Assembly: GCA_902763185.1 (NCBI GenBank)
Contig: CACWQT010000004.1
Coordinates: forward strand, 54,535 to 118,534
Length of the DNA: 64,000 bases
Source of the DNA: an uncultured Rhodospirillales bacterium
GTDB taxonomy: Bacteria; Pseudomonadota; Alphaproteobacteria; RF32; CAG-239
Reading direction: 5' to 3'
In this document: one piece after another, positions 27,901-44,664 of the stretch
Layout: each line of letters opens with the position of its first letter
How positions within the stretch are numbered: position 1 is the first letter of the stretch
Program-made: the position numbers and the translations under genes
Notes under the pieces: model-generated
What the model was told of the DNA's origin: nothing
Database searches by the model: none
The model's input: the letters and a program-made list of their open reading frames with translations, nothing else

Positions 27901-30900
27901 TAGTGGCAAAGTTTTAGGATCGGCCGGAAATTATCGTCGTTTGGCTTACGATGAAAACGGCAAAGTGATTGGCTATGTAGACAAAGACGGTAATGTGCGA
28001 GACTTTAATGGTAATTTGATTGGCAAGATGTTGCCGGATGGAACAATTGTAGATAAAAACGGTCGGGTTATTGGTAAAGCCGGAGATTTTAAGCAAGTTG
28101 CAGTTGATAAAGACGGTAATGTGATTGGTTATATAGATGAAAATGGTCGGGTTATCGGGGCTAATAGCAAACTTGTTGGCTTTATAGATAAAAACGGTAA
28201 TGTGATTAAAGCCGGGGATAAAGTTATCGGTAAAACCTGTATCAAGAAAAAGACCATAGTAAACGAGCGTGGAAAAATCATTGGTTATTTGGATAAAGGC
28301 GGCGTTGTTGAAAATTTCCGTGGAAAAGCCATTGGGCAAAATCGCAATGGCACAGTTTTTGATAGCAATAACATTGTTATCGGCAAAACAAGCGTTGCGC
28401 TGAATATGATCAAATTAGGAGATGATATTGTCGGCTATGTTGACGGCAAAAGCTATGCTCGCGGACAGGATAATGAGATTTTTGGTATTGTCGATATGAG
28501 CGGTAATGTTCTTTCTACCAAAAATAATAACATTATCGGCAAAATTGATGTAGGCAAAAAAAGCTTACGCAATCGTAATGACGAAATTATCGGCTATGCC
28601 AAAGAAAATAATTTTGCTTATGATAAAAATAACAAGTTAATTGGTTATGTAAATGATAAAGGAGAAGTTGTTGCTGCTGGTGAAAGATTATGTTCAGCTT
28701 GTAAAGCTGCAAAATTGGCTTATGATAAAGACGGTAATATAATAGGTTATGTAGATGAGAATGGTAATGTTATTGGTCCAGACGGGAAAATTGTCGGCTA
28801 TGTGGACAAAGATGGTAATGTTATTGGAACAAATGGTAAAATTATCGGTCACGTTGGTGAGGGTCGCCGTTTAGCTTATGATAAAAATGGTAAAGTTATC
28901 GGATACATCGAGCCAGATGGCACAGTGCGTGATTTTAAAGGAAATGTTATCGGGCATTTAGATGAAGAAGGCAATATTAGAGATAAAGACGGTAATATTA
29001 TCGGTTATGCAGGTGAAGAACGCCTCTTGGCTTATGACAAAGATGGTAAGGTGATTGGTTATGTTGATGAAAAAGGGCGTGTTATAGATGGTGACGGCAA
29101 TGTTATCGGAGTGGTTGATAAAGACGGTAATATTATCGGTACTGATGGTGAAGTTATTGGCAAAGTAGGGGATGCTAAGAATCTAGTCTATGATGAGAAA
29201 GGCAATGTAATTGGCTATGTAGATGATGACGGGGCGGTTAAAGATTTTAACGGTAATGTGATTGGTTATGTAGATGAAAATGGCAAAGTGCTGAATAATA
29301 CAGGAGAAGTTATTGGCTCTGTTGGCAAAATGGGGCGTCTTGCCTATGATGAAGATGGTAATGTGATTGGCTATGTAGATGAAAATGGCAACGTTTATGA
29401 CTTTAATGGTCGACTAATTGGCAAAGCCTTGCCTGATGGTTCAATTGCAGATGAAAATGGCAATATGATTGGTAAAGTCGGAGATGAGTTGGTGGGGCTG
29501 GCTGTTGATGAAAACGGTAATGTTATCGGTTACATAGGTTCGGACGGTAAAGTTTACGGTGAAAATGGTGAACTGATCGGCTATTTAGATGATGAAGGTA
29601 ATGTTATTGGTCTAACCGGAGATGTTTTAGGCAAAGCTAGTGCCATGAAGAGATTGGCTTATGATGAAAATGGTAATGTGATTGGCTATGTGGATGATGA
29701 TGGAACGGTTCGAGATTTTGATGGCAATGTTATCGGATATTTAGGTGAAGACGGTAAAACAATTCATGATTTGAACGGTAAAGTTATCGGTTATGCCGGA
29801 GATTTGGCACGTGTTGTTTTAGATGAAGACGGCAATGTTATCGGTTATGTTGATGAAAAAGGACGTGTTATCGGTAAAGACGGTGAAATCATAGGTGTTT
29901 TAGGAGATGATGGAACAGTTTATGCAACATCAGGTGAAGTTATCGGTAAAGTTGCTAATGCAACCAATGCAAAGTTAGGAGTTGTTAAACGTCGGGCTGT
30001 CTTAGATAAAGATGGCAATGTTATCGGTTATATAGATGAAAACGGTATACCACGTGATTTTAATGGCAATATATTGGGAACATTAAGAGAAGATGGAACG
30101 ATTGTTGATAAAGATGGCAACGTCATCGGTCGTGTCGGTAATGAAATAGAGTATACAGTTGATGAAACCGGCAAAATTATCGGCGTTGTCGGAGGATATT
30201 CCAATTTAGTTGTTGATAAAAATGGTAAAGTTATCGGATATGTTGGTAAAGATGGCAAAGTCTATGGTCTTGACGGCGTGATGATTGGCTATATAGATGA
30301 AAACGGTAATGCCATAACTTCTCGCGGAATAAAAATTGGTGCCGTCGTTAAGAAAGATATGTTAACTGTTTCCCCTCAAGGCAAAAGCTTAGGATTGATT
30401 AATAATCGAGGCGAAGTATTGAATACCGAAGAAGAAATCATTGGTAAAATATTGCCCAATGGGCTTATTAAAGCGGTTGAAAGCGATAAAATTATTGGAA
30501 AAACAGTTATTGGAGGTATGGCGTTAGGTTGGGATTGCAAACAATTGGGATATGTTGAAAAAGATTTAAGTATTAAGAATAACAATAAAGAAACAGACTA
30601 TAAAATGCTGTTTGACCGCAGTATCGTTGATAAAAATGGCAAACATGTCGGTGATGTTGTCAAAATCGGCTGGGTGAGAGATAATAAGTGCAATTTGATA
30701 GGTAAAGTAGACTATGACGGTAGCGTGAAAAATGAAAAAGGTGAATATATCGGATGCTCTAATCCTGATGGGCGAGTGATAAGTAAAAATAACGGTAAAA
30801 TTATCGGTAAAGTCTATGAACCTGGATTTGCATTATATTATAACGGAAAATATATGGGATTACTTAGTCCGGATGGAAGCATCAGATCTGGTAAAACATT

Positions 30901-32200
30901 GGTGGGCTGTGCTAATTTAGACAATGAAGTGTTAAACAGAGACGGCTTTGTTATCGGATATATTATGGATAAAACAGCGGTATATGATAAAGACGGAAAA
31001 TTTGTAGATAATATGCATCAAAATAATTATAATGAACCTTTAATTCCTAATACCAAGATACTGTTTAACAAACTGTTGGTTAACTCCAAAAAAGAGATTA
31101 AAGGAATTATTCTGCCCGAAAAGAATATTATAATTGGCGCTAATGGTAATGTTATAGGGCATTTATTTGCTGATGGTAAAATATATAATCAAAAGGGCAT
31201 AGCGGTAGATAATATAAATTCCGATGGTAATTCATTTTATGCGGGACAGGCTGGGAGAATATTGCCCAAAGGCAATGTGGTTGATTTCTTTGGTGACATC
31301 ATAGGATTTATAGATGATAATGCGGATGTCATAGATGAAACAGGCAATGTTTTAGGTCATATTGATGCAAAAGGACGCATGTTCACTAAAGACGGTGAAT
31401 ACAAAGGAGGTATTGTAAAAACCGGTGCTGGTATTGGATATGACGGTTCTTATTTAGGTTATGTAAGTAAGAGCGGAAAGGTTGTTGATGTAGATGGTAA
31501 TATCACCGGTATAATAAGTTCCGATGGTCATATACTGGATAATAATAAGCAGATTGTTGGAGAAGTTATCTCAGAAGACTTTGTGATTGACATTCAAGGC
31601 AATATTAAAGGCTATGTTAATGTATTAGGGGATGTTATAGATTTGGATGATAAAATTTCCGGAGCTATTTTACCGGGGGGAACATCTGGCAAAAATTATA
31701 GTGTTATTAGAAACGGAGCAATAGTCGATTATTCGGGATCAATTATCGGACAAGTTTCTGCCGGTGGTGAAATATTATCCGTAGCAAATAAGCAAATTGG
31801 GCGCATACTGGGATCTAATAAAGCAATAAACGATAAAGGGGCACTAATGGGAGAACTGGTTGAAGGCGATATTGTTATCAATGAGCAAGATAAAGTAGTT
31901 GGCTTTGTAAATATGGACGGAAAAGTGGTTAATAAAGAAAAAGCAGTCATCGGAAAAGTCATTTCGGCAAATTTAGTTGTAGATAACAATGGAAAAATTA
32001 TGGGACATACATATAAAATAGGTGCTAATATACTAAGCAATGACGGAAAATTTATTGGTCGCTTAGCGCCAAACGGGGAAGTTTTAAGCACCACTAACGG
32101 CAAAATAGGATATTTAAAAAGCAATGGCACATATATCAATACTAAAAATAAAGTTTCCGGCTATGTATTGGATGAAGTAGCACAAAATCGGAGGAACTAG
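24941..32200 (+). CDS. Giant (2419 aa) single-pass membrane protein built of D-x-x-G-x-h-I-G short repeats, unknown family
   Basis: Its ATG overlaps the virB9 stop (ATGA at 24941-24944). It has a TM helix LIVLTGIIFGVLFLFGLLII, an acidic linker and a Cys-containing beta-rich module (CRGKDLRGNETCNVLISWIPHLPGN). From ~25600 to the stop the repeats are continuous, e.g. LAYDKDGNVIGYVDENGNVRDFNGNLIGK. Confidence 0.8.
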   Translation: MSENTRFEEYEKKTRKLIVLTGIIFGVLFLFGLLIISSDGEDYNPEEAAPEFTEDESMTATVEDTEDMSIETEDENISEKKKPITIIPSQINMNEFVLGVDTQNQTVLTIGTDGTESIHIVRVDLVEETEDGFIPTDKCRGKDLRGNETCNVLISWIPHLPGNVQNNFKIIWYESRLGPQNAKSEIVSIRGNAIYPEDNYSKYQGEGNASTTIQPSGMRKGAHRLAIGPNGEIIGYIDEAGNVYDKEGNLIGRVNEEGLVVDENGNVIGVAQNMRLAYDKDGNLMGYVKTDGSVVDFNGNVIGKALPDGTIVDENGKVIGHAVEAGFVYDENGKITGRVLPDGTVVDINDPNKVIGHLNEKGEVVDEKGNVIGKVTSSGEIVVDEDGNVLGVVMPDNSVVDKDGNIVGYVGEDGTVYKTSAEKIGANGDSHKLVYDADGKAIGYIDENGNVVKFSDMEGKGNGISAHLAYDKDGNVIGTISPDGTVRDFKGNIIGQVDKDGNIRDKNGNIIGHAGGMARLAYDKDGNVIGTIDPDGTVRDLKGNIIGHVDKDGNIRDKDGNIIGRAGGMAQLAYDKDGNVIGTISPDGTVRDFKGNIIGQVGKDGNIRDKNGNIIGRAGGMAQLAYDKNGNVIGAIDPDGAVRDFKGNIIGHVDKDGNIRDKDGNTIGTTNTNKLANTKGGKIIGKVGSSRRLALDKNGNVIGYIESDGTVKDFNGNIIGRLDKDGNIRDKDGNIIGKAGSYAKLALDKDGNVIGYVDEKGRVFDALGKQIGYVDENGNIVSLDGGAGADKKRLAIGSNGEVIGYIDDDGNVYDFEGNLIGKVDKDGNIKDKNGNIIGKAGEYKTLAYDKDGKVIGYIDDNGRVIGKDSKVIGYVDENGMIIGTTGKVIGKAGKSGRIAYNNDKKFIGYVETDGRVIACGGAEIGKMNKNGDIYNGNKKIGTAGEVRELAFGANNVFIGYIDDKKRVVDCDGKVIAVVDKNGNIIASSGKVLGSAGNYRRLAYDENGKVIGYVDKDGNVRDFNGNLIGKMLPDGTIVDKNGRVIGKAGDFKQVAVDKDGNVIGYIDENGRVIGANSKLVGFIDKNGNVIKAGDKVIGKTCIKKKTIVNERGKIIGYLDKGGVVENFRGKAIGQNRNGTVFDSNNIVIGKTSVALNMIKLGDDIVGYVDGKSYARGQDNEIFGIVDMSGNVLSTKNNNIIGKIDVGKKSLRNRNDEIIGYAKENNFAYDKNNKLIGYVNDKGEVVAAGERLCSACKAAKLAYDKDGNIIGYVDENGNVIGPDGKIVGYVDKDGNVIGTNGKIIGHVGEGRRLAYDKNGKVIGYIEPDGTVRDFKGNVIGHLDEEGNIRDKDGNIIGYAGEERLLAYDKDGKVIGYVDEKGRVIDGDGNVIGVVDKDGNIIGTDGEVIGKVGDAKNLVYDEKGNVIGYVDDDGAVKDFNGNVIGYVDENGKVLNNTGEVIGSVGKMGRLAYDEDGNVIGYVDENGNVYDFNGRLIGKALPDGSIADENGNMIGKVGDELVGLAVDENGNVIGYIGSDGKVYGENGELIGYLDDEGNVIGLTGDVLGKASAMKRLAYDENGNVIGYVDDDGTVRDFDGNVIGYLGEDGKTIHDLNGKVIGYAGDLARVVLDEDGNVIGYVDEKGRVIGKDGEIIGVLGDDGTVYATSGEVIGKVANATNAKLGVVKRRAVLDKDGNVIGYIDENGIPRDFNGNILGTLREDGTIVDKDGNVIGRVGNEIEYTVDETGKIIGVVGGYSNLVVDKNGKVIGYVGKDGKVYGLDGVMIGYIDENGNAITSRGIKIGAVVKKDMLTVSPQGKSLGLINNRGEVLNTEEEIIGKILPNGLIKAVESDKIIGKTVIGGMALGWDCKQLGYVEKDLSIKNNNKETDYKMLFDRSIVDKNGKHVGDVVKIGWVRDNKCNLIGKVDYDGSVKNEKGEYIGCSNPDGRVISKNNGKIIGKVYEPGFALYYNGKYMGLLSPDGSIRSGKTLVGCANLDNEVLNRDGFVIGYIMDKTAVYDKDGKFVDNMHQNNYNEPLIPNTKILFNKLLVNSKKEIKGIILPEKNIIIGANGNVIGHLFADGKIYNQKGIAVDNINSDGNSFYAGQAGRILPKGNVVDFFGDIIGFIDDNADVIDETGNVLGHIDAKGRMFTKDGEYKGGIVKTGAGIGYDGSYLGYVSKSGKVVDVDGNITGIISSDGHILDNNKQIVGEVISEDFVIDIQGNIKGYVNVLGDVIDLDDKISGAILPGGTSGKNYSVIRNGAIVDYSGSIIGQVSAGGEILSVANKQIGRILGSNKAINDKGALMGELVEGDIVINEQDKVVGFVNMDGKVVNKEKAVIGKVISANLVVDNNGKIMGHTYKIGANILSNDGKFIGRLAPNGEVLSTTNGKIGYLKSNGTYINTKNKVSGYVLDEVAQNRRN
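25600..32170 (+). repeat. Protein-level array of ~17-20-aa repeats, often grouped as ~52-aa super-repeats
   Basis: Read directly from the translation. The recurring unit is h-x-h-D-x-x-G-x-h-I-G-x, and the super-repeat is LAYDKDGNVIGxIxPDGTVRDFKGNIIGxVDKDGNIRDKxGNIIGxAGxxxx. The boundaries are approximate. Confidence 0.8.
26342..26965 (+). repeat. Near-identical in-frame DNA tandem repeats (156-bp units in an A-B-A'-B' arrangement, 312-bp period)
   Basis: Units start at 26342, 26498, 26654 and 26810. Unit 1 and unit 3 differ at one position (gac/ggc) over the first ~135 nt on manual comparison. Units 2 and 4 share long identical blocks, e.g. atcatcggtcatgtagataaagatggtaacatcagagataaagatggtaata. 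Confidence 0.85.
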
Positions 32201-32201
32201 A

Positions 32202-35200
32202 GTGCATATTAAAACATTAAAAATGAAGCAAATAGCTCTGGTGTTTATGATGTCCTTTTTAGGCAGTGCTTCCGTCTATGCCGCAGATATGAGCGCTTTA
32301 GACTATAATGGTGATTTGTTAGGAAAAGTTATTCCGGATGGTTCTGTAATAAATGCGCAAAACGAATTGATAGGACACATTACGGCTGACGGCTCAGTTA
32401 TGGATGATAATAATAATTTGATAGGTGGTGTTGTTCCTCAAGGAATTGCAATTTCTGTAAATAACTCTGTTTTAGGGAAAGTTAATAATGATGGTTCTGT
32501 AACCTCAGCAGATGATAGCTTGGTGGGTAAAGTTTTACCTAACGGTCTGGTTGTCGATTTAAACTATAATGTACTTGGCGCAGTGGTTGTTCCCGGATTG
32601 GTATATAATGATGATGGAAATATAATCGGACGCATATCCGGAGATGGAAAATTCTATACTCTTGACGGAATAAGTTCCGGATTTATTACTTCTACGGGCG
32701 AGGTTTATGCGGTATCAGAGGCCAGTAGAAAAGAAGTATTGGTAGGTAGGGTGATTTCATCAAAAATTGTTATTTCTTCTAACGGGAGGTTTTTAGGCAG
32801 TATATCTCCCGATGGCAAGGTTATGGATTTAAAGAAAAATCTCATAGGCAATGTCCATGCCAATGGCTTTGTATATAATGCTGACGGATTAGCTATCGGA
32901 CATATTGTAAAGCAAGGATATGCCTTCAATTTGGACGGTTCATACTTAGGATCAATCAGTTATAATGGAGAAGTGATAAACAAAGGCACAACAGTTGCTT
33001 TTAGTTCGTATGATGATAAAATTATCGGAAAAGATGGAAAAGTTATCGGCTTTGCAACTAATACCTCTGCAACGGCAAATACTTTAGATGGCAAATATTT
33101 AGGATATATCATTAATAATGGGAATATTGCTAAAGGAAGAGAAATTGTCGGTAAAATAGGTGCTTCCGGTGATGTGATAGATTCAACGGGAAAGGTTATC
33201 GGATTTATAAATAAAACCGGTCCAATTTTTGATTACACAGGTGAAGTTCAAGCAACAGCTGCTGTTAACGGTGCCGTTATATCCTTAAACGGTATTGAAC
33301 AAGGGTATATGCAAAAGAAACGCGCATATGATTATAAAGACAAAGAGATCGGCCGTATTTTAAGCAATAAAGTGAACTTTGATAACAGTAATAATTTTAT
33401 GGGTTTAAGTGGTATTTCCTCCTCACTTGTGCATCAGGGAAAAGCATATAGAATCTCGCCTTACGGTTATATATTTGATGAAACAGGTAATATTGTCGGA
33501 CAAAATTATGATTTATCTGGGGTATATGCACCGGATGGTGCACTTTTAGCTGGCGTTTCCGGTAATGGTAAAATAGAAAATATAGCCTTAAGCGAAAAGT
33601 CAAAAATGACAAATGCTGGTTATTTATTATCTGCCGATGATAAAATTTTAGGGCGTGTGATTGCAAAAGAATATGCGACAAATTTCAGAGGAAAAGATTT
33701 AGGTTATGTAAATCCGACCAATTTAATTATTGGTACCCAAAATAATGTGGTAGCTAAAATTTTACCAAACGGCAATGTCGTGAGCAATAATGCAAGCGAA
33801 ACACAAATAATGGGATATGCAGATGATGCGCCGTTCAGTATTAGCATTAATGGTGACTATTTAGGCGCCAATAAACCCAATGGTGAAGTTCAAAAAGGGA
33901 CAGAAGTAGTTGGTAATATAACATCTAACCAATATGTTATAGATAACATGGGTGCATTATATGGAAAGACATTATCTTATGGTGTGATAATTTCTAAGAA
34001 TTGTAAGTTTTTAGGTGTCGTGTCGGATAAAGGAGATGCAAGAACAGCTAAAAATAGCTATTTGGGTATGATTTTAGCTAATAATCAAGTGATAAACGAC
34101 GCGGAAGAAGTAATCGGTTACATGATTACCCCTAAAGTCGTAAATGGCAAAAAAGGTGCTGTTATAGGTGTAGAAACACCTTTAGGAACAGTGTTAAATT
34201 ACAAAAGTCAAAATTTAGGCTGTCAGGATATTTATGGCAAAATAAGAAATACGCAAAAAGAAGTTGTCGGACAAGTTATTCCCAATGTCTCTGTAATGGA
34301 TTTCAGTAATAAAATTATCGGAAATATTAATTTTAATGGAGAAATAGAAGACATTTCCGGAAATAAAGTGGGCTATATAGATATTGATGGTGGCGCACAT
34401 GCAAACAGCGGAGAAGATATCGGTAGCTTGTTTGAATATACGGTAGCTTTTGATAATAATAATACTTATATTGGTCAGATTAATGATGAAGGAAAGGTCA
34501 TTAATGAAAATGGCGAAAACATCGGAACGGTTAATTATGACGGTGCTGTTTTATTAAATGATGGTCAACTTGGCTATGCACTTTATGATTTGTATATATA
34601 TGATAATGAAGGAAACACAATTGGCTATATCGCCAAAAATGGTCGTGTATATAGCATAATGGGGGATGTTAAAGGTTCTGTTTACAAAGGATTTTGTTTA
34701 GATAAAAAACAAAATCTTATTGGTCGAGGGGCACGTGATTATTATATACGTGATGGTGAGCAAAAAATTTTGGGTTACTTGGGGTTAGATGGAAAAGTTA
34801 CTAATATACGGAATATAGAAGTCGGTCAATTAGGAACTAACGGTGAAATACTGGATACAAACGGAACGGTGATTGCCACAGCTAATCCTTTGCAATATTA
34901 TCAAAAAGAAGTTGTTGAAGAACCTGAACTGATACCTGAACCAGAAATAGAACCGGAAGCAACAGAGACCGAAGAAGATGAACCGGAGGTTCTGGAAGAA
35001 ACTAGCGATGAAGAAAACATTGAGGATATAGAGACAGAAGAAGAACTTCCAGATACAAATTTCTCCCAAAATATAATAGGTGTCGCATTAAGCCCGACAG
35101 GGCAATATTTAGGTCAAATAAATGACAATAATGAGGTTTTGGATAGCAACGGAAATGTAATTGCCAGAGTTGATGAAAATGGAAACATTATTGATGAGCA

Positions 35201-36452
35201 TGGTAATAAAATCGGCGAATTCCAAGGGCAACAATCAGAAAGACCTCAAGTCTCAAACAGTAATTGGTTTAAGGATATAATAAAGGGTGTAACAGTATCT
35301 CCTTATGATGATACAAACAATATATCCAATGTAGGTGAGGGTGGAGGTATTGGACCTGGCGGACGATACAATCCGCGCCGAGCGGCAATTTTAAGCCGGT
35401 TATATGCAGAACGGCGGCAAAGTCTGTCCGGCACAAAGATTGGAAATCCATCAGATATATCAGTTTATACCGGCTGGCAGGAGGACTGGGGAGCGGTTGC
35501 CAATATCAATAAAACCATATCTACATTGCGTGTAGATATGAGTAATATGATAACTTCAGATAAACCAATTCCTGCTATTTTGGCTCGCACGGTAATTTCT
35601 TTAGGTAAAGCACCTATTACAGCTATCGTAGAACGTAATATTTATGGAGAACATGGGCGTAACGTGATTATTCCTGCAGGTAGTCGAATTATCGGTGTTT
35701 GGGATAATGACGAGAATGATGAAGATGGAATGACCAGAGATGATGGTAATAGCGGTGGATTAAAGTTAGAGATGCGTTGGCAACGTATCATCCGTCCGGA
35801 TGGCATAGCCTTTAAATTAGATAGTTCTGAAACAGGTGATGCCCAAGGTCGTGGTGGCGGCGCATTAGGTTATGTAGATGAACAACTGATAAGAAAATAT
35901 GCTATGCCGTTATTTGGCAACGTAGCCACCTCAGCAATAGCCTATATGATGGCAGTTAATGAAGATTCAAAAGGTGATGTGGAAAACTCAAAGCAACAGG
36001 CAGCTTCAGATGCCAGAGAGAACTTTCTTGAAAAAATGAATGATATCCTGGATAAAATTATGGAGAAAAAAGAAGAAATAACTCCGGTAACTTATATACC
36101 GGCAGGTACAAGAGTTATTATTTATCCGATGGCAGATTTATGGTTGAGAACAACCAAGAATATAGAAAGCTATGCTGGTTCAGACATCAAGAAAGACAAC
36201 ACTTCATTTGTCGATGATGATGAAACAGAAATGGAAAATGATCAAATGAGAAACAAAATGCAAAACCGCAACAACAGCAACAGCCAACAACCAATAAATA
36301 ATGATGCAAACAAAGCAACAGGTTCTGATACGACCAATCAATCCGGTAACAGCGGTGGGCGTTCCAATGTTGCATTACCGCCACCATCAGCTGATGGCTC
36401 CGGAGGACAAATGCCGGAGGAAAGCAAAGATGACATGGAACTGGAGTTTTAG
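32202..36452 (+). CDS. virB10: VirB10/TrbI-family protein expanded to 1416 aa by the same short repeat
   Basis: GTG start 6 nt after GGAGGAA and 1 nt after the upstream stop. Signal/anchor is MKQIALVFMMSFLGSASVYA. About 850 aa of repeats follow (DYNGDLLGKVIPDGSVINAQNELIGHITADGSVMDDNNNLIGGVV...), then the acidic Pro/Glu linker EEPELIPEPEIEPEATETEEDEPEVLEE. The C-terminal VirB10 domain is ISTLRVDMSNMITSDKPIPAILARTVISLGKAPITAIVERNIYGEHGRNVIIPAGSRIIGVW...LEMRWQRIIRPDGIAFKLDSSETGDAQGRGGGALGYVDEQLIRKY. Confidence 0.8.
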   Translation: MHIKTLKMKQIALVFMMSFLGSASVYAADMSALDYNGDLLGKVIPDGSVINAQNELIGHITADGSVMDDNNNLIGGVVPQGIAISVNNSVLGKVNNDGSVTSADDSLVGKVLPNGLVVDLNYNVLGAVVVPGLVYNDDGNIIGRISGDGKFYTLDGISSGFITSTGEVYAVSEASRKEVLVGRVISSKIVISSNGRFLGSISPDGKVMDLKKNLIGNVHANGFVYNADGLAIGHIVKQGYAFNLDGSYLGSISYNGEVINKGTTVAFSSYDDKIIGKDGKVIGFATNTSATANTLDGKYLGYIINNGNIAKGREIVGKIGASGDVIDSTGKVIGFINKTGPIFDYTGEVQATAAVNGAVISLNGIEQGYMQKKRAYDYKDKEIGRILSNKVNFDNSNNFMGLSGISSSLVHQGKAYRISPYGYIFDETGNIVGQNYDLSGVYAPDGALLAGVSGNGKIENIALSEKSKMTNAGYLLSADDKILGRVIAKEYATNFRGKDLGYVNPTNLIIGTQNNVVAKILPNGNVVSNNASETQIMGYADDAPFSISINGDYLGANKPNGEVQKGTEVVGNITSNQYVIDNMGALYGKTLSYGVIISKNCKFLGVVSDKGDARTAKNSYLGMILANNQVINDAEEVIGYMITPKVVNGKKGAVIGVETPLGTVLNYKSQNLGCQDIYGKIRNTQKEVVGQVIPNVSVMDFSNKIIGNINFNGEIEDISGNKVGYIDIDGGAHANSGEDIGSLFEYTVAFDNNNTYIGQINDEGKVINENGENIGTVNYDGAVLLNDGQLGYALYDLYIYDNEGNTIGYIAKNGRVYSIMGDVKGSVYKGFCLDKKQNLIGRGARDYYIRDGEQKILGYLGLDGKVTNIRNIEVGQLGTNGEILDTNGTVIATANPLQYYQKEVVEEPELIPEPEIEPEATETEEDEPEVLEETSDEENIEDIETEEELPDTNFSQNIIGVALSPTGQYLGQINDNNEVLDSNGNVIARVDENGNIIDEHGNKIGEFQGQQSERPQVSNSNWFKDIIKGVTVSPYDDTNNISNVGEGGGIGPGGRYNPRRAAILSRLYAERRQSLSGTKIGNPSDISVYTGWQEDWGAVANINKTISTLRVDMSNMITSDKPIPAILARTVISLGKAPITAIVERNIYGEHGRNVIIPAGSRIIGVWDNDENDEDGMTRDDGNSGGLKLEMRWQRIIRPDGIAFKLDSSETGDAQGRGGGALGYVDEQLIRKYAMPLFGNVATSAIAYMMAVNEDSKGDVENSKQQAASDARENFLEKMNDILDKIMEKKEEITPVTYIPAGTRVIIYPMADLWLRTTKNIESYAGSDIKKDNTSFVDDDETEMENDQMRNKMQNRNNSNSQQPINNDANKATGSDTTNQSGNSGGRSNVALPPPSADGSGGQMPEESKDDMELEF
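32290..34900 (+). repeat. Protein-level short-repeat array within virB10, same type as in the upstream giant gene
   Basis: Read from the translation. The units are more divergent than in the 24941 gene, and a few more copies lie after the acidic linker (~35070-35220). The boundaries are approximate. Confidence 0.7.
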
Positions 36453-36457
36453 CCGGG

Positions 36458-36486
36458 TTGACATAAAAAGATAAATAGGGTAGAAT
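36458..36486 (+). promoter_or_regulatory. Candidate sigma70-type promoter upstream of virB11
   Basis: TTGACA (36458-36463), 17-nt spacer, TAGAAT (36481-36486), in the 59-nt virB10-virB11 gap. Pattern only. Confidence 0.45.
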
Positions 36487-36511
36487 ATCAAGTATGTTAG
36501 GGAGATAGTCA

Positions 36512-37492
36512 ATGGGAAAGCTGGAAGATCAAGTATTAACCTCTGTGTTGAGACCGCTTGCCTATTGGTATGAGCAGGATAATATTGAAGAGGTGGCAAT
36601 CAACCACCCCGGAGATATTTGGCTTCGTCTGCGTGGTAAACGAGCTTTTCCTTGGGTAAATTACAAAGATCCGAAATTATCGCGTGAGTATCTCATCAAT
36701 TTATTGCACATTATCGCTAACCTAAATGACCAAGAATTTGATCCGATTAGCGGTTCACCTGTTGTTTATGCTCGTATTCCGGGCGGACACCGTTTTACCG
36801 GTGTTGCCGGCAAAAACATTGAATATGATTTGGATGACGCAGCCACCGGTGGTGTCGCAATAGCAATTCGTCTGCACACGGATGATGTGGCATTCGGTTT
36901 TGGTGATTATGGCTTGGAACAAGGAAAAGAATTAAAGCAGGTTAATCCCTTAAAAGATATCAAAGATCCACCGGATGCTTATGAAAGGTTATTATTAGCA
37001 CTGCGTCGCGGCGACCATATCCTGGTCAGCGGTGGAACGGGTACCGGTAAAACGACATTATTGAATAACCTATTAAAGCTTTTGGATATCCATAAACGTG
37101 TGATAACCGTAGAAGATACGCGCGAGTTGAATGTGCCGCAACCGAACCACGTTCATATCGTGTTATCCAGAACTGAGCAGACCAACAGTATGGACTATTC
37201 CAAAGTGATTGACTTAATTGTGCGTTTCACACCAGACGCCATCATCGGTGGTGAGATTTCCACCAGCAACGCGGCGGCTCTTTGGGAGCTGATGGGGTCT
37301 GGTCACGATAACTGCTTAGCAACTATTCACGCCGAGAGCTCGATGGCGGCATACGAAGCATTTGTAAAACGTATCATGAGAACATCTCCGCATATTGATG
37401 TGGAAAAGACCATTGAAGAAATGCGCCGCAAACTGCATGTAGTGCAAATTGTCCGTGACGGCAACATCCGCGGCATTACCGAAATTACTTAA
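36512..37492 (+). CDS. virB11: VirB11-family traffic ATPase
   Basis: 326 aa with Walker A SGGTGTGKTT, then RVITVEDTRELN, then GGEISTSNAAALWELMGSGHDNCLATIHAES (His box). Confidence 0.9.
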   Translation: MGKLEDQVLTSVLRPLAYWYEQDNIEEVAINHPGDIWLRLRGKRAFPWVNYKDPKLSREYLINLLHIIANLNDQEFDPISGSPVVYARIPGGHRFTGVAGKNIEYDLDDAATGGVAIAIRLHTDDVAFGFGDYGLEQGKELKQVNPLKDIKDPPDAYERLLLALRRGDHILVSGGTGTGKTTLLNNLLKLLDIHKRVITVEDTRELNVPQPNHVHIVLSRTEQTNSMDYSKVIDLIVRFTPDAIIGGEISTSNAAALWELMGSGHDNCLATIHAESSMAAYEAFVKRIMRTSPHIDVEKTIEEMRRKLHVVQIVRDGNIRGITEIT

Positions 37493-37498
37493 ATAAAG

Positions 37499-38143
37499 TT
37501 AGTCAACAAGTTCAGCCACTTCAGCCTTAAGCTCATCAAGGAACAGATTCTTTTCGGAACTGGTTTTAAGCACGTTAACGTGTGCCGCTGTGTGCTTGGT
37601 AATTTGAGCGTTGGTATTTGCAATAACTTTTTCCAGTTCTTTGGCGCTGATTTTATCAATTTTTGTTAAAACTATCTGATAAGTCACCGCCGCCTTATCC
37701 AACATATCCATAATTTCTTCATCAATTTTTTTGATACCATGTCTTGAATCAATCAACAAGAAAACACGCCTCAAACTGGCTCTGCCGACAAGATACATAT
37801 TGATGAGATTCTGCCAATTTTTAACAATATCCTTAGGCGCTTTGGCAAAGCCATACCCAGGTAAATCCACCACATAGAGTTTGTTTGCTAAATTAAAATA
37901 ATTAAGTTGCTGCGTGCGCCCCGGTGTAGAGGATGTTTTGGCCAACTTTCTTTGCCCGAAAAGCGCATTGATAAGACTTGATTTACCGACATTAGAGCGA
38001 CCGGCAAAGGCAATCTCCACCAAATCATCAGATGGTAATTGCTTTAAGTTGGCAACGCTTAACACAAAATCACATTTTTGGTTAAAAAGGTCTTTGCCTT
38101 TTTGCAAGCGTATTTTTTCTTCTTCCTCACTCAACTCAGCCAT
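37499..38143 (-). CDS. engB: Ribosome biogenesis GTPase EngB/YihA
   Basis: G1 motif GRSNVGKSSLINAL, G3 motif DLPGYGFA and TKIDK. It lies downstream of yidC, as in alphaproteobacteria. Confidence 0.85.
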   Translation of the reverse strand: MAELSEEEEKIRLQKGKDLFNQKCDFVLSVANLKQLPSDDLVEIAFAGRSNVGKSSLINALFGQRKLAKTSSTPGRTQQLNYFNLANKLYVVDLPGYGFAKAPKDIVKNWQNLINMYLVGRASLRRVFLLIDSRHGIKKIDEEIMDMLDKAAVTYQIVLTKIDKISAKELEKVIANTNAQITKHTAAHVNVLKTSSEKNLFLDELKAEVAELVD

Positions 38144-39810
38144 TATTTAACTCCGTTCTTTATCATAATTGCCTTTTGTTGAATGATAGATAGAATATTA
38201 CTCAATGTCCAGTAAATGACTAAACCTGAAGCAAAATGTCCGAGCATAAAGGTAAAGAACACCGGCATCAAAGCAAACATCCGAGCTTGGTCTTTGTTCA
38301 TAGGTTGCGGATTGAGCTTTTGTTGCAAATACATGGTTATCCCCATCAAGATTGGCCATACACCGATATCTATGAAACTCGGCACATAAATGTGTAACAT
38401 TTGCGATAAAGTCAAAGGATCTGGTGCAGACAAGTCTTTAATCCACCCTACAAACGGTGCATGTCTGATTTCAATAGAGAAATTAAGCACTTTATACAAA
38501 GAAAAGAATACCGGAATTTGAATAAACAGTGGCAAGCATCCTGATGCCGGATTGACTTTTTCTCGCTTATAAAGTTCCATGGTTGCCTGTTGGATGAGCA
38601 TATTATTGTTACCGTATTTCTCTTTAATGTCATTGAGCTTCGGCTGGAGTGCTTTCATCTTAGCCATACTGGTATAAGATTTATTGGCAATCGGGAACAT
38701 CAAAAGCCTTAAAATTGCCGCAAACAGCAAAATTGCCCAACCCATATTACCCAAATATCCATAAAGGAAATCTAAAATATAGAAAAACGGTTTAGTTAAG
38801 AAATAATACCACCCGAAATCAACCGCCAAATCAAACTTAGGTATGTTTAGCTCTTTTTTATATGTATCTAACAACTTAATCTCTTTTGCGCCGGCAAAAA
38901 GTTTATAAGTATAAGTTTTAGTTTTGTGTGCCGGAACAATGATTCTGTCACCTCTGAAATCAACTTGATAATTATCTCCGTCGCTGTTCTTAAACGTGAT
39001 ATTGGTATTTTGATTATTATCCAAAATAAGTGAACTGAACCAATATCTATCAGTAAAGCCAATCCAACCGCCTTTAGAATCAAGAGATTTAGTCGCACCT
39101 TTTTTAAGGTCGGAATATTTAAATTCTTTAAGTGTGTCATCAATAATACCAAGCATCCCTTCATGCACAACAGAGTTAGATTTTGCCTCACCCTTAATAT
39201 TTTTGCTGATAAGTGCATAAGGAAAAACTTCTAATTCTGTGCCGGAGTTATTTTCAATCTCATCAGTGATGGTAAACATATAATTATTATCAAGAGCAAT
39301 CTTGCGGATGATTGTAATACCATTACTATGCCATGTTAATGTAACAGGATGTTTAGGAGAAAGCTCATTATCTTTTGTTTGCCACATGGAACTAGGCGAA
39401 GGAAGTGTAACTTCTTTATCAAGTGTTAGCCACCCCAGTTCGGCAAAATAATGATTAAGTGTGCCTTGCGGCTTAAATAATTCCACATCATCATCACTAT
39501 CTAGTGTTTTTTTGTATTTTTTTAAGTAAAGATTGTCAAAGCGCGCCCCTTTAAGCCGGATACTTCCTAAAACAGCATCATTTTGGAGATTAAGCCGCGT
39601 ATCTTCTTTAACCGCACTTTGTGTATCCTGAAAAATCGGCTCTTGCGACGCAATCGTCTGAGGTGTGTCAGTAACTTCTGCATCAGCCACGGTTGGCACA
39701 GGTTGAGGCTTTACGCTGGGTTTATTTAGTCCAAAGAAAGCATTAACGGAATAAATAGCAATAAATGACAGCACAACCGCCAAAGCTAAAGATTTCTTTT
39801 CATCGTTCAT
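38143..39810 (-). CDS. yidC: Membrane protein insertase YidC
   Basis: The ORF is open to 39828, but the likely start is MNDEKKSLALAVVL. It has a large periplasmic domain and then the conserved core GWAILLFAAILRLLMFPI...MKALQPKLNDIKEKYG...GCLPLFIQIPVFFSLY. Confidence 0.9.
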   Translation of the reverse strand: MNDEKKSLALAVVLSFIAIYSVNAFFGLNKPSVKPQPVPTVADAEVTDTPQTIASQEPIFQDTQSAVKEDTRLNLQNDAVLGSIRLKGARFDNLYLKKYKKTLDSDDDVELFKPQGTLNHYFAELGWLTLDKEVTLPSPSSMWQTKDNELSPKHPVTLTWHSNGITIIRKIALDNNYMFTITDEIENNSGTELEVFPYALISKNIKGEAKSNSVVHEGMLGIIDDTLKEFKYSDLKKGATKSLDSKGGWIGFTDRYWFSSLILDNNQNTNITFKNSDGDNYQVDFRGDRIIVPAHKTKTYTYKLFAGAKEIKLLDTYKKELNIPKFDLAVDFGWYYFLTKPFFYILDFLYGYLGNMGWAILLFAAILRLLMFPIANKSYTSMAKMKALQPKLNDIKEKYGNNNMLIQQATMELYKREKVNPASGCLPLFIQIPVFFSLYKVLNFSIEIRHAPFVGWIKDLSAPDPLTLSQMLHIYVPSFIDIGVWPILMGITMYLQQKLNPQPMNKDQARMFALMPVFFTFMLGHFASGLVIYWTLSNILSIIQQKAIMIKNGVK

Positions 39811-39888
39811 CTCAAAAAAACACTCCAAAATTTATATTCTATCCGTTTGTAATCTAAAAAAGCGTGATTGTAAAGCATTTCCAAGCGG

Positions 39889-40161
39889 TTAATCAGCGCT
39901 CTTTTCTTTATGGTCCTCTTTTTCGGGAACTGGGTCAAATCCGGAACCGCCCCACGGATGACAACGGCCGATTCGTTTAAGTCCTAAAATAACACCGTGC
40001 CAAGCACCGTGTTTTTGAATAGCCTCAATCATATATTCTGAGCAAGTCGGTTTATAGCGACACGCCACCGGCAACCATGGGGAAATTGCTTTTTTATAAA
40101 ATGTAACACCCTCGATAAGCAAATACGAAACAAAAGATTGCAAACTATGCATGATCTTCAT
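39889..40161 (-). CDS. yidD: Membrane protein insertion efficiency factor YidD
   Basis: [59 protein letters not shown]. The start is uncertain because the ORF is open to 40185 and overlaps the rnpA end. Confidence 0.8.
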
Positions 40162-40549
40162 TTTCTGTTTTATCCTTATCAGCAAGGGTATTTGCTTCTA
40201 TAAACGTTTTATTGATTTTTTTTATCGCATAAACTGTATCGCTTTTAAGTTCTTGATAATCACAAAATGGTGTAGAATTACGAGCGATAAACACATAATC
40301 CGTATGAGGCAGAGCATGCTTAGCCAACACCTCACGCACCACAGCGCGTAGCCGCCGCTTACTCTTGTTGCGTAGCACAGCATTACCGATTTTTTTTGTG
40401 GCGGTGTATCCCACCATAATATCATCAGATACAGATAAACTGGGAGCCGCCTGAAGCACCATATTGTGTGTAGCAACAAAAGCACTCTTAGCGACTCTTA
40501 GAAAATCTTTTCGTTTTTTAAATGTAAAAATTTTTACCATATTGCGCAA
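40145..40549 (-). CDS. rnpA: Ribonuclease P protein component
   Basis: Basic ~130-aa protein directly after rpmH, with [10 protein letters not shown]...[27 protein letters not shown]. Confidence 0.8.
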
Positions 40550-40551
40550 AA

Positions 40552-40686
40552 TTAAGCAGAAAGCTTTTTACGACCTCTTGCACGACGTGCAGCTAAAACT
40601 TTACGTCCGCCGGCGGTTGCCATACGAGTGCGGAAACCGTGGCGATGAGCTCTAACGAGCTTGCTTGGTTGATAAGTTCTTTTCAT
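40552..40686 (-). CDS. rpmH: 50S ribosomal protein L34
   Basis: Below the ORF-track size cutoff. My translation is [44 protein letters not shown], with GGAGAT as RBS. Confidence 0.9.
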
Positions 40687-40754
40687 ATTAAAATCTCCGG
40701 TTAAATTATTTATTATTTAAAGGCTTTCCCCATGAAAGCCTCTCGGTTCGGGAA

Positions 40755-40783
40755 ATGTATAATGTCATTTTACTGATAAGTCA
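40755..40783 (-). promoter_or_regulatory. Candidate promoter of the rpmH operon
   Basis: On the minus strand: TTGACT (40783-40778), 17-nt spacer, TATACA (40760-40755). A 7-bp hairpin aggcttt/aaagcct (about 40715-40735) lies in the predicted leader. Confidence 0.4.
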
Positions 40784-40880
40784 ACATTTTTTTACCTTAA
40801 AGCTCATGCCTTTAAAATCGCTTGCAAAATAAAATAAATATGCTATAAAATAAGCATACTATGGAGGTTTAGTTCTTGCT

Positions 40881-41234
40881 ATGATAATTGACAGCAAAAA
40901 TGAAACGCAAAAAAGTATATTAACCAACAAATGTTTTTATCAGACTACGGCGCAGATTATGCACGAGTTTGAACAGAAAGGTTATGCCAATTCGGCAGAT
41001 GAAACCGCCAAAGTAATTGCCGCCTATCATGATGTGGTGCAAAAAAAGGCTAAAAATCATTTTAATAAAGACTATAATGAGGCGTTCAAAAAAATTGATG
41101 ACGCCATTAAAGGCTTAGCTAATAAAGTTTTTTATAGTGAAAAAGAAAGCATGGACCAGGCATATAAATCTTTTGTAAAGTTTGACTATATCAATGCCAT
41201 CATTGGTCGCCAACGCACCAAGAAAAAAATTTGA
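40881..41234 (+). CDS. Hypothetical protein
   Basis: 117-aa ORF preceded by GGAGG and a TTGCAA-16-nt-TATAAA element (40822-40849, with TGn). No family recognised. Confidence 0.4.
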   Translation: MIIDSKNETQKSILTNKCFYQTTAQIMHEFEQKGYANSADETAKVIAAYHDVVQKKAKNHFNKDYNEAFKKIDDAIKGLANKVFYSEKESMDQAYKSFVKFDYINAIIGRQRTKKKI

Positions 41235-41340
41235 GTCTCCTTTTATTACTCATTCTTGTTAATTTCTTTAAAACTTGGTTTGCCAAGCGCCCGTTTGCAC
41301 TTTAATTTTTGCATATACGTATGATATAAGAGAGGTTAAT

Positions 41341-42315
41341 ATGGCAGAAATTTCTGTAATCGGCAGTGGTCGTTGGGGCACGTTTTTGGCATGGTATGCT
41401 GCAAACTATTGTCACATGGATAAAGTAAAAATTTATAGCAAGCCGGATGCACCGGATTTTATTGAACTTAAAGAAACACGTAAGAATCCTTATTTATCTT
41501 TAACGGATAATATGGAATTGCACGAGAATATCGCTGATATTTTGGATAATGACCTGATTATCATTTCGATTGGCAGCCAACACGTACGCTCACTGGCAAA
41601 AGAGCTGAACAGTTATAATGTGGCCGGTAAAACCTTTCTTTTGGCAATGAAAGGTTTAGAAGAGCCAAATGCTAAAATCTTAAGCGATGTAATGAGAGAA
41701 GAAATCAATGTGCCGATACATATTGCAACTTTAGGTGGCCCTGGGCATGTTCAGGATTATATGAAAAAAGTTCCCTCCTGCGCAGTAATAGATAGCGATG
41801 AGGATATTGTAAAAGAGCGAGTCGTTAAAACCTTGCAAAGCGAGCTTATCCGATTTTACTATGGCTCAGATTTTATCGGCAATCAAATCGGCGCAGCACT
41901 AAAAAACGTGATAGGCATCGCGGCCGGTATCTTGGATGGTTTAGAGTGGTATGGCTTAAAAGGTGCTTTAATGGCGCGTGCACCGGTAGAAGTTGGGCGC
42001 TTTATCAAGCACTTTGGCGGCAACCCGATGACTGCTTACGGTTTATCTCATTTAGGCGATTATGAGGCAACATTGTTCTCTAAGCATAGTCATAATCGTA
42101 TGTTTGGCGAAATGCTTGCTAAAGGCGAGAGCTTCGGAAAATTGGCAGAAGGTTATTATACCCTAAAGGCAGTCAAGAATATTGCCGATAAGGAAGATAT
42201 CAGTATGCCGATTTGCCAAGGCCTGTATAAAGCGGTTTATGAAGGTGCTGATGTTAAACAGACGATTCGCACCATGTTTGACCGCAATCTAAAACAAGAA
42301 TTTGACCAGTTTTAG
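41341..42315 (+). CDS. gpsA: NAD(P)H-dependent glycerol-3-phosphate dehydrogenase
   Basis: The ORF is open from 41275, but the likely start is MAEISVIGSGRWGT (Rossmann motif). It also has KNVIGIAAGILDGLEWYGLKGALMARAPVEVGRF. Confidence 0.8.
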   Translation: MAEISVIGSGRWGTFLAWYAANYCHMDKVKIYSKPDAPDFIELKETRKNPYLSLTDNMELHENIADILDNDLIIISIGSQHVRSLAKELNSYNVAGKTFLLAMKGLEEPNAKILSDVMREEINVPIHIATLGGPGHVQDYMKKVPSCAVIDSDEDIVKERVVKTLQSELIRFYYGSDFIGNQIGAALKNVIGIAAGILDGLEWYGLKGALMARAPVEVGRFIKHFGGNPMTAYGLSHLGDYEATLFSKHSHNRMFGEMLAKGESFGKLAEGYYTLKAVKNIADKEDISMPICQGLYKAVYEGADVKQTIRTMFDRNLKQEFDQF

Positions 42316-42321
42316 AAAAAA

Positions 42322-43545: not shown

Positions 43546-44664
43546 TTAGATTCTCATCGGCATTAATACATAAATTGCACTGTTATCAGAAGTATCATTG
43601 ATAACGGTTGCCGCAGCACTACCAGACAAGCTAAAGCGAACATCATCGCCTTTAATTTGTGCTAAGATATCCAAGAGATAACGGAAGTTATATCCGGTAT
43701 CAATCGATTCTTTGTCATATTTTGCTTCTAACTCTTCGGTTGCATTACCCAACTCTGCATTAGAAGCGGCAATCGTTACACGATTCGTATCTGTAATCAA
43801 GCGGATTCCACGACTACGCTCGGTAACAACCGAAACACGGTCAACCGCCGCAGACAACTCTTTTACATTAACTTCTAAAATTTTATCATTATCTGTCGGA
43901 ATAACGCGTTCATAATCTGGGAAAGTACCATCAATCAACTTGGATGTCAAAGTAACATCTTCAAAAGAAATACGAACTTTGTTTTCAGATAAAGCCATAG
44001 CAACGGTATCGGTTGAGGCATCATCCAAAAGTTTGCGAATTTCTAAAACAGACTTTCTCGGAATAATAACACCTTCTAACTTCTCAGCACCTTGTGGTAA
44101 CGGCGATTCGGCACAAGCTAAACGGTGTCCGTCTGTTGCAACAACACGCAAAACATTAGCTTCGCCTTCTGTTTTGGCATGAACGTATAAACCGTTTAAG
44201 TAATAACGTGCTTCTTCAACGGAGGCAGAAAATTGTGTGCGGTCAATCAAAGTCTTTAATTCATCTTTATTTATCTCAAAATTAATCGGCAAATTATCAC
44301 CGGAAATGACCGGAAAGTCTTCTACACCGATTGTAGAAAGCGAGAAGTTAGAGCGCCCCGAAGCAATAGTTAAAGCCCCTTTGTCATTTGGATAAGTAAG
44401 CTCAACATCAGAACCTTCTGAAAGCTTTCTGACAATATCATACAGCATATGTGCAGGAGCAGTTGTCGCGCCTTCTTCGGCAATTTTAGCTTCCACAATT
44501 TCCGTGATTTCAATATCCATATCGGTCGCCTTGAAGTTAATGGTATTGTCCTTGGCTTCAATGCGAACATTTGATAAGACCGGTATGGTGTTTCTTTTCT
44601 CAACAATGCTTTGAACATGGCTGAGTGTTTTTAGTAAATGAGCACGTTCTATTGTAAATTTCAT
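43546..44664 (-). CDS. dnaN: DNA polymerase III beta sliding clamp
   Basis: The likely start is MKFTIERAHLLKTLSHVQSIVEKRNTIPVLSNVRIEA (the ORF is open to 44715). It ends ...AIYVLMPMRI. Confidence 0.9.
   Translation of the reverse strand: MKFTIERAHLLKTLSHVQSIVEKRNTIPVLSNVRIEAKDNTINFKATDMDIEITEIVEAKIAEEGATTAPAHMLYDIVRKLSEGSDVELTYPNDKGALTIASGRSNFSLSTIGVEDFPVISGDNLPINFEINKDELKTLIDRTQFSASVEEARYYLNGLYVHAKTEGEANVLRVVATDGHRLACAESPLPQGAEKLEGVIIPRKSVLEIRKLLDDASTDTVAMALSENKVRISFEDVTLTSKLIDGTFPDYERVIPTDNDKILEVNVKELSAAVDRVSVVTERSRGIRLITDTNRVTIAASNAELGNATEELEAKYDKESIDTGYNFRYLLDILAQIKGDDVRFSLSGSAAATVINDTSDNSAIYVLMPMRI

Follow-up and report, generated by a model that had tools for sequence, protein, structure and literature searches.

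A probable VirB10 divided between two beta-flower-expanded chains in a type IV secretion locus of uncultured Alphaproteobacteria

Two adjacent genes between virB9 and virB11

The 64,000-nucleotide (nt) stretch of DNA analyzed here, hereafter the window, comes from an uncultured Rhodospirillales bacterium (assembly GCA_902763185.1, contig CACWQT010000004.1, positions 54,535 to 118,534), and its + strand carries a VirB-type type IV secretion system (T4SS) locus. Coordinates below are window positions on the + strand unless stated otherwise. An initial annotation had described the locus as VirB ordered, and virB2, virB4, virB8, virB9, and virB11 indeed surround a pair of adjacent open reading frames (ORFs), at 24941-32200 (the N-half, 2419 amino acids [aa]) and 32202-36452 (the C-half or barrel gene, 1416 aa). 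The pair stands between virB9 and virB11 in the operon order virB8, lipoprotein ORF, virB8, virB9/CagX, N-half, C-half, and virB11. Canonical VirB10 proteins measure about 350-500 aa and unite the cytoplasmic tail, transmembrane helix, and Pro-rich linker in one chain; together with VirB7 and VirB9 they form a 14-fold outer-membrane core complex, and they are thought to relay conformational signals that depend on ATP from the inner membrane to the gate in the outer one. We regard it as probable that the two genes of the window together encode one functional VirB10, enlarged by beta-flower-type hairpins and split into two polypeptides.

The C-half starts with a GTG codon 7 nt after a GGAGG (32190-32194) and carries near its C terminus a VirB10/TrbI beta-barrel domain (35550-36146, aa 1117-1315). 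The Pfam TrbI profile (PF03743) matches this region over positions 2-188 of its 188 (E=6.1e-27; 95 bits against a cutoff of 35), which confirms the domain boundaries and the barrel initially placed at about nt 35500-36150. The NCBIfam ComB10 and VirB10 matches fall below their cutoffs; in the PDB, the closest solved relative by sequence is ComB10 (2bhv, 1.4e-18), and TrwE also matches (1.4e-4). A six-frame search of the 64-kb window found no second TrbI barrel, leaving that of the C-half as the only one. The AlphaFold2 model of aa 955-1340, built from 54 aligned sequences, runs through three hairpins, a disordered stretch rich in Gly, and a helix to the barrel and its two long helices. Foldseek comparison of this model with the PDB returned VirB10-family C-terminal domains for all of the top 25 matches, including TrwE, CagY, X. 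citri VirB10 (6gyb, TMt 0.68), ComB10, TraF, TraB, and DotG, so that Pfam and Foldseek both identify a C-terminal TrbI barrel. An antenna helix-loop-helix is predicted inside the barrel domain (35880-36077, aa 1227-1254 and 1263-1292); its local confidence (predicted local distance difference test, pLDDT) is only about 50-77, and the region aligns to the corresponding part of ComB10.

The barrel is preceded by a Gly-rich segment, GEGGGIGPGGRYNPRR, and a conserved helix (together 35232-35549; helix at aa 1058-1077) with invariant G, P, R, and Y columns. Before these stand three conserved hairpins (35067-35231, aa 956-1010, ...GVALSPTGQYLGQINDNNEVLDSNGNVIARVDENGNIIDEHGNKIG), which are modeled as strands with a pLDDT of about 80 and are kept in the relatives P0003-P0036. 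After the barrel, a low-complexity tail of about 100 aa (36147-36452) ends in ...ALPPPSADG...ELEF. This ending is conserved as ALPPPxADG, an acidic stretch, and L-x-F, with the PPP and the terminal F near invariant; relatives end in ...IDLSF, ...IPALF, or ...VPQLF, keeping the terminal Phe.

Most of the C-half consists of a beta-flower-type hairpin repeat body (32283-34934, aa 28-911) of about 885 aa and about 52 hairpins, followed by an acidic, Pro/Glu-rich disordered linker (34935-35066, aa ~912-955; the acidic sequence EEPELIPEPEIEPEATETEEDEPE lies at aa 906-929) and the three hairpins described above. This layout agrees with the first description of the gene, as some 850 aa of repeat, a Pro/Glu acidic linker, and a few more copies. 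The repeat body passes the Pfam cutoffs for Bflower_2 (PF21785, E=4e-50 in eight stretches, 168.7 bits against 38) and Bflower (60.8 bits against 25), also matches DUF3659, and bears the [DNEQ]xxG motif of beta-flower hairpin tips. The repeat had been written as D-x-x-G-x-h-I-G, and this family of motifs is enriched four- to fourteen-fold over shuffled sequences: G-x-x-h-G occurs 17 times in aa 28-1000 (4.1+/-1.9 in shuffles), and the strict form D/N-x-x-G-x-x-h-G occurs 10 times (0.7+/-0.8). The real unit, however, is a 17-residue beta-hairpin, degenerate in the C-half, where some 47 loose copies are found.

AlphaFold2 modeled aa 28-940, from 41 sequences, as an all-beta structure with about 104 strands, that is, 52 hairpins over aa 28-911 (mean pLDDT 90.1; predicted TM score [pTM] 0.87). 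The only disordered part of this model is the acidic linker (pLDDT below 50 for model residues 885-913). Since the pTM of 0.87 extends over 913 residues, the model indicates that the array forms one rigid body rather than beads on a string. Cys601 and Cys674 of the repeat body are invariant in orthologues, which would fit an oxidizing periplasmic location. The repeat region is colinear with that of its orthologues (39-86% identity over 94-100% of the region), the length of the C-half stays within 1374-1494 aa among orthologues at least 49% identical over it, and no DNA tandem repeats were found in 32202-36452. As judged from these alignments, the C-half repeat array is ancient, colinear, and length stable.

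In place of a tail and membrane anchor, the C-half begins with a predicted Sec/signal peptidase I-type signal peptide of 27 residues (32202-32282), MHIKTLKMKQIALVFMMSFLGSASVYA, followed by ADMSALDYNG.... It has a basic n-region (K4, K7, K9), a hydrophobic core of about 12-15 residues, and V-Y-A just ahead of the predicted cleavage site. At this N terminus, the Kyte-Doolittle mean stays below 1.7 in every 19-residue window (the maximum is at least 1.5, at residue 10), versus 2.97 for the helix of the N-half. In 72 orthologues, position -1 of the predicted site is Ala in 68 and Ser or Gly in the others, position -3 is A, V, T, S, or L in all 72, and the mature protein starts with the nearly invariant (A/Q)(D/E)(I/M)(S/T)A(I/L)(D/N)FNG. 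A conserved A-x-A-type site joined to a conserved mature N terminus is the signature expected of a processing site. Hydropathy and the site pattern thus uphold the initial suggestion of a cleavable-type signal peptide instead of a tail and transmembrane anchor.

Sequence alone cannot separate a signal peptide from a signal anchor with certainty, and the C-half might still be a bitopic VirB10 held by an uncleaved anchor, with the upstream protein as a paralogous partner. The basic n-region would suit such an anchor, and in some orthologues an upstream start codon would give a longer N-terminal extension. We consider this quite improbable, because the short core stays below a hydropathy threshold that the N-half helix passes easily, because the -1/-3 pattern and the mature N terminus are those of a processing site and not of a membrane helix, and because the ancestral tail, transmembrane helix, and immunoglobulin (Ig) module are demonstrably on the other gene.

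That gene, the N-half, opens with a cytoplasmic tail (aa 1-16), a transmembrane anchor (24989-25054, aa 17-38, LIVLTGIIFGVLFLFGLLIISS; 19-residue Kyte-Doolittle mean 2.97), and an acidic linker (aa 39-82), followed by an Ig-like domain of the ASH / HYDIN-VesB-CFA65 type (25187-25528, aa ~83-196). The VirB10 tail and anchor that are absent from the C-half chain are thus both found on the upstream gene; the uncharged run of the transmembrane helix has a median length of 22 aa in 60 orthologues. The Ig-like domain is assigned through transitive homology. A hidden Markov model (HMM) of the first 230 residues (tail, transmembrane helix, linker, and Ig-like domain; the N-module) was searched against 1.84 billion representative proteins and found many giant proteins with tandem copies of the Ig-like part. 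Positions ~80-172 of the profile match the tandem domains of P0220, P0247, P0254, and P0266 (E=5e-69 to 4.5e-17), and the name of the domain is taken from the Pfam calls on these copies, namely ASH, HYDIN_VesB_CFA65-like_Ig, and Cep192_D4 (E down to 1e-99). Direct Pfam ASH matches are subthreshold and limited to clade B orthologues (P0092, 1.2e-4; P0221, 4.4e-5); the window N-half itself gave no Pfam match for the Ig-like region.

The rest of the N-half consists of about 2190 aa of beta-flower hairpins, some 130 in number (Bflower_2, E=2e-177, 26 stretches), and a conserved C terminus ending in ...KVSGYVLDEVAQNRRN. Bflower_2 therefore matches in both genes, in line with the initial proposal of a VirB10 enlarged about threefold by a repeat shared with the giant protein upstream. 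The very high GC skew at 26-32 kb stems from the Gly-rich (GGN) repeats. The window N-half is the longest of 60 compared, which range twofold between clades from 1092 to 2419 aa, and the pair, at 3835 aa, is the largest seen. The lengths of the two halves correlate at -0.52 overall, and weakly within clades; length compensation between them is not shown by these values. The only sizeable DNA tandem repeat in either gene lies in the N-half (26342-26943; 156 nt in 3.9 copies, or 312 nt in 1.9 copies at 93% identity). It encodes four near-identical 52-aa hairpin blocks, with the protein repeat LAYDKDGNVIGTI...GGMA, and represents a recent duplication of a hairpin block.

The repeats of CagY and DotG vary by intragenic DNA recombination (PMC6761968), and carriers of the present genes live in mammalian guts. 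A recent 156-nt tandem duplication in the N-half and the different N-half lengths of the clades could then be read as marks of a CagY-like, surface-exposed, recombination-driven module that tunes the T4SS or hides it from host immunity. We give this very little credence: the C-half has no DNA tandem repeats and is colinear and length stable, its repeats model as a well-packed, rigid body, and in the VirB10 topology they lie periplasmic to the barrel.

Junction, relatives, and single-chain forms

The N-half stop codon (TAG, 32198-32200) and the C-half GTG (32202) leave the two ORFs 1 nt apart and in different frames. The Shine-Dalgarno sequence of the C-half, GGAGG (32190-32194), lies inside the last codons of the N-half, where CGG AGG encodes Arg-Arg; since the N-half itself forms this signal, the two genes are, as predicted from their junction, translationally coupled. 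The N-half ends in ...EVAQNRRN, its ...NRRN deriving from AAT CGG AGG AAC (32186-32204), and this end is kept in both clades, a conservation that may partly reflect the constraint of coupling.

A pattern scan of one genome per GTDB species recovered relatives in 265 species representatives, and the best 80 loci were examined. All of these best 80 come from metagenome-assembled genomes (MAGs) of uncultured Alphaproteobacteria from the gut of mouse, deer, buffalo, sheep, reindeer, and human, with record titles such as Alphaproteobacteria, 'Acetobacter sp.', 'Azospirillum sp.', 'Rickettsiales', and CAG:495. Their barrel-bearing ORF, whose length in related genomes had been marked for checking, measures 1380-2370 aa and always starts with a signal peptide. 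The paired upstream ORF, of 1092-2419 aa, encodes the same repeats behind a short tail, a strong transmembrane helix, and an acidic segment. When the repeat region served as the query of a protein search, it returned more than 100 full-length orthologous clusters (at least 120 among the matches listed), in which the window protein is P0098; the NCBI names of the C-half orthologues are 'TrbI/VirB10 family protein' or 'hypothetical'. The expansion had been put forward as a third independent case of an enlarged VirB10: its independence stands, and what looked like a single case is a family.

The N-half ORF abuts or overlaps the C-half in all loci with sufficient upstream sequence, about 70 of the 80 examined; in 59 of them it is complete. 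Two ORFs 1 nt apart in different frames could suggest a sequencing or assembly frameshift, a pseudogene, or programmed frameshifting in one giant gene, and one locus (L033, CAYJKS010000009.1, 2085-6402) has an extra break inside the C-half. To an artifact of this kind we attach practically no weight. The break has the same position in some 70 species whose genomes were assembled independently, and across species the two ORFs occur in all three relative reading frames, including in-frame stops, which excludes a sequencing frameshift; a new signal peptide always follows the break, and the identical window C-half protein is present in nine member sequences. In L033, which is a MAG, the C-half is broken again shortly after the signal peptide, into a 205-aa ORF and a 1194-aa ORF, through either an assembly frameshift or a pseudogene.

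In both clades, the two proteins are far more conserved at their facing ends than in the surrounding arrays; these ends comprise the final ~60 residues of the N-half and the initial ~25 of the mature C-half. This conservation bears on a further explanation, in which the two genes derive from one VirB10 and no longer cooperate, leaving an untethered outer-membrane complex beside an independent, inner-membrane-anchored scaffold, for example one that binds the cell wall or acts as a spacer. The SPOR-like domain of the neighboring VirB9 hints at peptidoglycan contacts of the machine, and the N-half varies twofold in length between clades (1092-2419 aa) with the C-half near 1400-1500 aa, both of which would suit independent roles. 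We nevertheless judge such a separation unlikely, although it is the one alternative that keeps appreciable weight, given the conservation of both facing termini, the strict adjacency, in every locus with enough sequence, of two ORFs whose stop and start codons overlap and of which the first contains the Shine-Dalgarno sequence of the second, and the lack of any other inner-membrane-anchored VirB10 in the locus.

The N-module search also identified the unsplit counterpart of the pair. Eight clusters (P0268, P0270, P0284, P0295, P0303, P0319, P0322, and P0331) carry in one chain of 1498-2350 aa the N-module, once and at the N terminus, then Bflower repeats and a C-terminal TrbI barrel. In the three genomic contexts checked (P0268, P0319, and P0270, at loci L081, L083, and L085), the gene directly adjoins virB9/CagX on one side and virB11 on the other, with virB8 and a small ORF further upstream. 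Since N-module, repeats, and barrel occur in one chain at the same operon position, the upstream gene of the window corresponds to the N-terminal half of a VirB10. The initial guess that the giant upstream protein carries the missing inner-membrane anchor thereby receives direct comparative support. The genes around these unsplit forms are similar as well: the virB8, small ORF, virB8 arrangement also adjoins the unsplit VirB10s in L081 and L083, virB11 holds the same position in L081, L083, and L085, and a CagX with a weak SPOR match occurs in L083 and L084, in L083 directly preceding the unsplit VirB10.

In a neighbor-joining tree of 87 barrel sequences, with VirB10s of ordinary length as the outgroup, the 75 split forms make up one monophyletic group to which the unsplit forms are external, from which it follows that being split is the derived condition of a single clade. 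An ASH-clan Ig domain between anchor and barrel is also found in more distant single-chain VirB10s (P0072-P0077). An hhalign comparison of their N termini with that of the N-half was suggestive (probability 38.5%, E=3e-4, 80 columns) and is superseded by the unsplit relatives; a word-indexed homology search with the N-module returned contig-truncated fragments only and no fusions. In P0072-P0076, distant VirB10s of about 500 aa, a lipoprotein signal peptide (...LVGC...) replaces the transmembrane anchor and the ASH-clan Ig domain precedes the barrel, which as predicted is another noncanonical way of anchoring VirB10.

Proposed assembly and the surrounding genes

The preferred explanation, one VirB10 in two chains, leads to the following picture. 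The C-half would be exported through its cleavable signal peptide, and its barrel and antenna helices, with VirB9 and a VirB7-like lipoprotein, would build the channel layer in the outer membrane, the rigid 885-aa hairpin body hanging into the periplasm. The N-half would retain the tail, the transmembrane helix, and the ASH-type Ig domain of the ancestor and project about 2190 aa of repeats from the inner membrane. In the periplasm, the halves may re-associate noncovalently through their conserved facing ends, through packing of the hairpin arrays, or both. We infer this re-association from the facing termini being more conserved than the arrays; moreover, beta-flower proteins also occur as 'half flowers' (PMC10584680), which makes domain complementation conceivable. 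Re-association would restore the link between inner and outer membranes by which VirB10 couples the ATPases to the outer-membrane gate, and the periplasmic structure would far exceed that of minimal VirB systems, as it does in the Cag and Dot/Icm machines. At the usual copy number of 14, the two arrays would add up to several MDa of beta-structure, so that an enlarged periplasmic assembly, functionally analogous to those of Cag and Dot/Icm but of different construction, is to be expected. The fullest version of this proposal is a widespread T4SS of gut Alphaproteobacteria with a VirB10 cut in two, whose rigid-array halves dock noncovalently, whose energy-sensing and gating signal, normally carried along one VirB10 chain, crosses a protein-protein joint, and whose 14-fold periplasmic beta-structure of roughly 5-6 MDa is a third, structurally distinct route to an expanded T4SS besides Cag and Dot/Icm; we give it about an even chance.

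Several points weigh against reading the pair as one VirB10 in two chains. Contact between the halves is inferred rather than directly evidenced, and signal peptide cleavage is predicted from motif conservation and hydropathy. The search for another virB10 covers only 64 kb of the genome. Neither a VirB6-like polytopic protein, which a hydropathy scan was run to find, nor a VirD4 was found in the window. All of the sequences compared come from metagenome assemblies, and the neighbor-joining tree carries no bootstrap values. Finally, BLAST of each half and of a junction probe showed that the halves align to overlapping parts of the unsplit proteins and that the repeats cross-match; as an origin of the split, tandem duplication with complementary loss would be as possible as simple fission.

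The other genes of the locus begin with three virB2/TrbC pilin paralogues (5464-6757; 110, 109, and 120 aa), whose products all combine a signal peptide with two transmembrane segments, a triple tandem that recalls the vir loci of Rickettsiales. They are followed by virB4 (7119-9569, 816 aa). The N terminus of VirB4 holds a strong transmembrane helix (aa 20-38), and no separate virB3 was recognized in the window; the protein may be a VirB3-VirB4 fusion. Between virB4 and virB8 lie six ORFs (9653-21171; 324, 161, 644, 247, 447, and 1989 aa), for which Pfam and NCBIfam searches returned no family. All six begin with signal-peptide-like N termini, and the 1989-aa protein is acidic and rich in Lys and Glu. 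The first virB8 (21156-21950) is separated from the second (22303-23067) by a 66-aa ORF with the lipobox FCILAAC (22081-22281), a candidate VirB7-like lipoprotein. Directly 5' of the N-half, virB9/CagX (23085-24944, 619 aa; Pfam CagX E=1.5e-14, SPOR 0.005) overlaps the N-half start with its stop codon. Its product is about twice the usual size, with a long low-complexity region rich in Asn, Thr, and Ser and a weak SPOR-like (peptidoglycan-binding) C-terminal domain. The virB11 ATPase gene (36512-37492; Pfam T2SSE E=3e-26) lies directly downstream of the C-half.

The genes engB, yidC, rnpA, rpmH, gpsA, recF, dnaN, and dnaA lie 3' of the T4SS locus on the opposite strand, and the locus is chromosomal. 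The GC skew changes sign near 37 kb, by engB-yidC-yidD-rnpA-rpmH and recF-dnaN-dnaA (window ~36000-46300), from which we conclude that the T4SS operon abuts the replication-origin gene cluster. Just 5' of the locus, on the - strand (1264-3763), lie genes for a secretin (541 aa) and a TcpQ-domain protein (294 aa), apparently parts of another pilus or secretion system.

Comparison with known systems

According to two earlier papers, canonical VirB10 bridges the two membranes and, with VirB7 and VirB9, makes up the outer-membrane core (PMC6120205, PMC3093366). The C-half shares the barrel and antenna fold and the position between virB9 and virB11 with VirB10 of A. tumefaciens and X. citri, TrwE of R388, TraF of pKM101, and ComB10 (Foldseek matches 6gyb [TMt 0.68], 7o3j, 8rt6, 3jqo, and 2bhv). 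It differs from them in having a signal peptide instead of an anchor and about 940 extra residues, the anchor being on a separate protein of 2419 aa. A VirB10 split in this way would break the rule that one VirB10 chain spans both membranes. The closest comparison is with the unsplit giant beta-flower VirB10s, which share the N-module, the repeat family, and the barrel (31-47% identity), as well as the operon position in the three examined; they form one chain of 1498-2350 aa without an internal signal peptide, in contrast to the 3835 aa in two chains of the window. The split lineage and its unbroken sister forms thus offer a natural experiment on the need for covalent continuity of VirB10.

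Beta-flowers are an already described fold family (Durairaj et al. 2023, PMC10584680). The corresponding Pfam families (PF21784/PF21785, clan CL0395) share the [DNEQ]xxG hairpin motif with both halves, but described beta-flowers are domains of about 100 aa with 8-12 strands, whereas here about 52 (C-half) and 130 (N-half) unbroken hairpins are fused to a secretion subunit. With this structural role in a secretion machine, the repeat has a clear cellular context for the first time. Likeness to the Rhs/YD-repeat shells (RhsA, TcB-TcC, and teneurin) stops at the hairpin level. Pfam RHS_repeat and TIGR01643 match the N-half, and Foldseek comparison of the C-half repeat body with the PDB gave local, hairpin-level matches only (Rhs/teneurin shells, E~1e-20). 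We rejected a closed Rhs cocoon as a reading of this body, since global superposition on RhsA, RhsP, TcB-TcC, and teneurin fails (TM 0.07-0.11, root mean square deviation ~29 Å); Pfam and NCBIfam searches found no Rhs core, plug, or toxin domains.

Bacteria with these genes are common but uncultured Alphaproteobacteria that inhabit the guts of humans, mice, and ruminants. The proteins are already public under generic names. Our literature searches found no publication on a beta-flower-expanded or split VirB10, an absence that is not proof, and hence no published description of the architecture. The most unusual feature is the gene split rather than the expansion, and the finding reaches further than what was first proposed, to a whole clade, and is also more specific, namely a true gene split.

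Among enlarged machines, Helicobacter pylori CagY resembles the C-half in placing a VirB10-type barrel behind a very large repeat region (Foldseek 6x6k, 6x6s, and 6odi, E~1e-11). CagY, however, is a single polypeptide with its own membrane anchor and sequence-unrelated repeats, whereas here the repeats are beta-flower hairpins distributed over two genes; CagY-type DNA direct repeats that drive length variation are absent from the C-half, and one array is present in the N-half. Legionella/Coxiella DotG (IcmE) likewise has a TrbI-like C terminus behind long repeats (Foldseek 9ngw and 7muq), and through it the core in the outer membrane is coupled to the inner membrane (PMC6761968). Within its type IVB system, DotG is one integral membrane protein, whose pentapeptide repeats vary in number even between strains; the present locus is VirB ordered (type IVA-like), with VirB2, B4, B8, B9, and B11 as neighbors, and its VirB10 is split. 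No Pfam match to the Pentapeptide family was found at E<=0.01 in the window proteins, and the match to beta-flower families instead makes the C-half repeat an independent expansion, as the differing repeat sequences had first suggested. In repeat type, repeat dynamics, and topology, the C-half is neither CagY-like nor DotG-like, and the split beta-flower VirB10 would represent a third, independent way of enlarging a T4SS.

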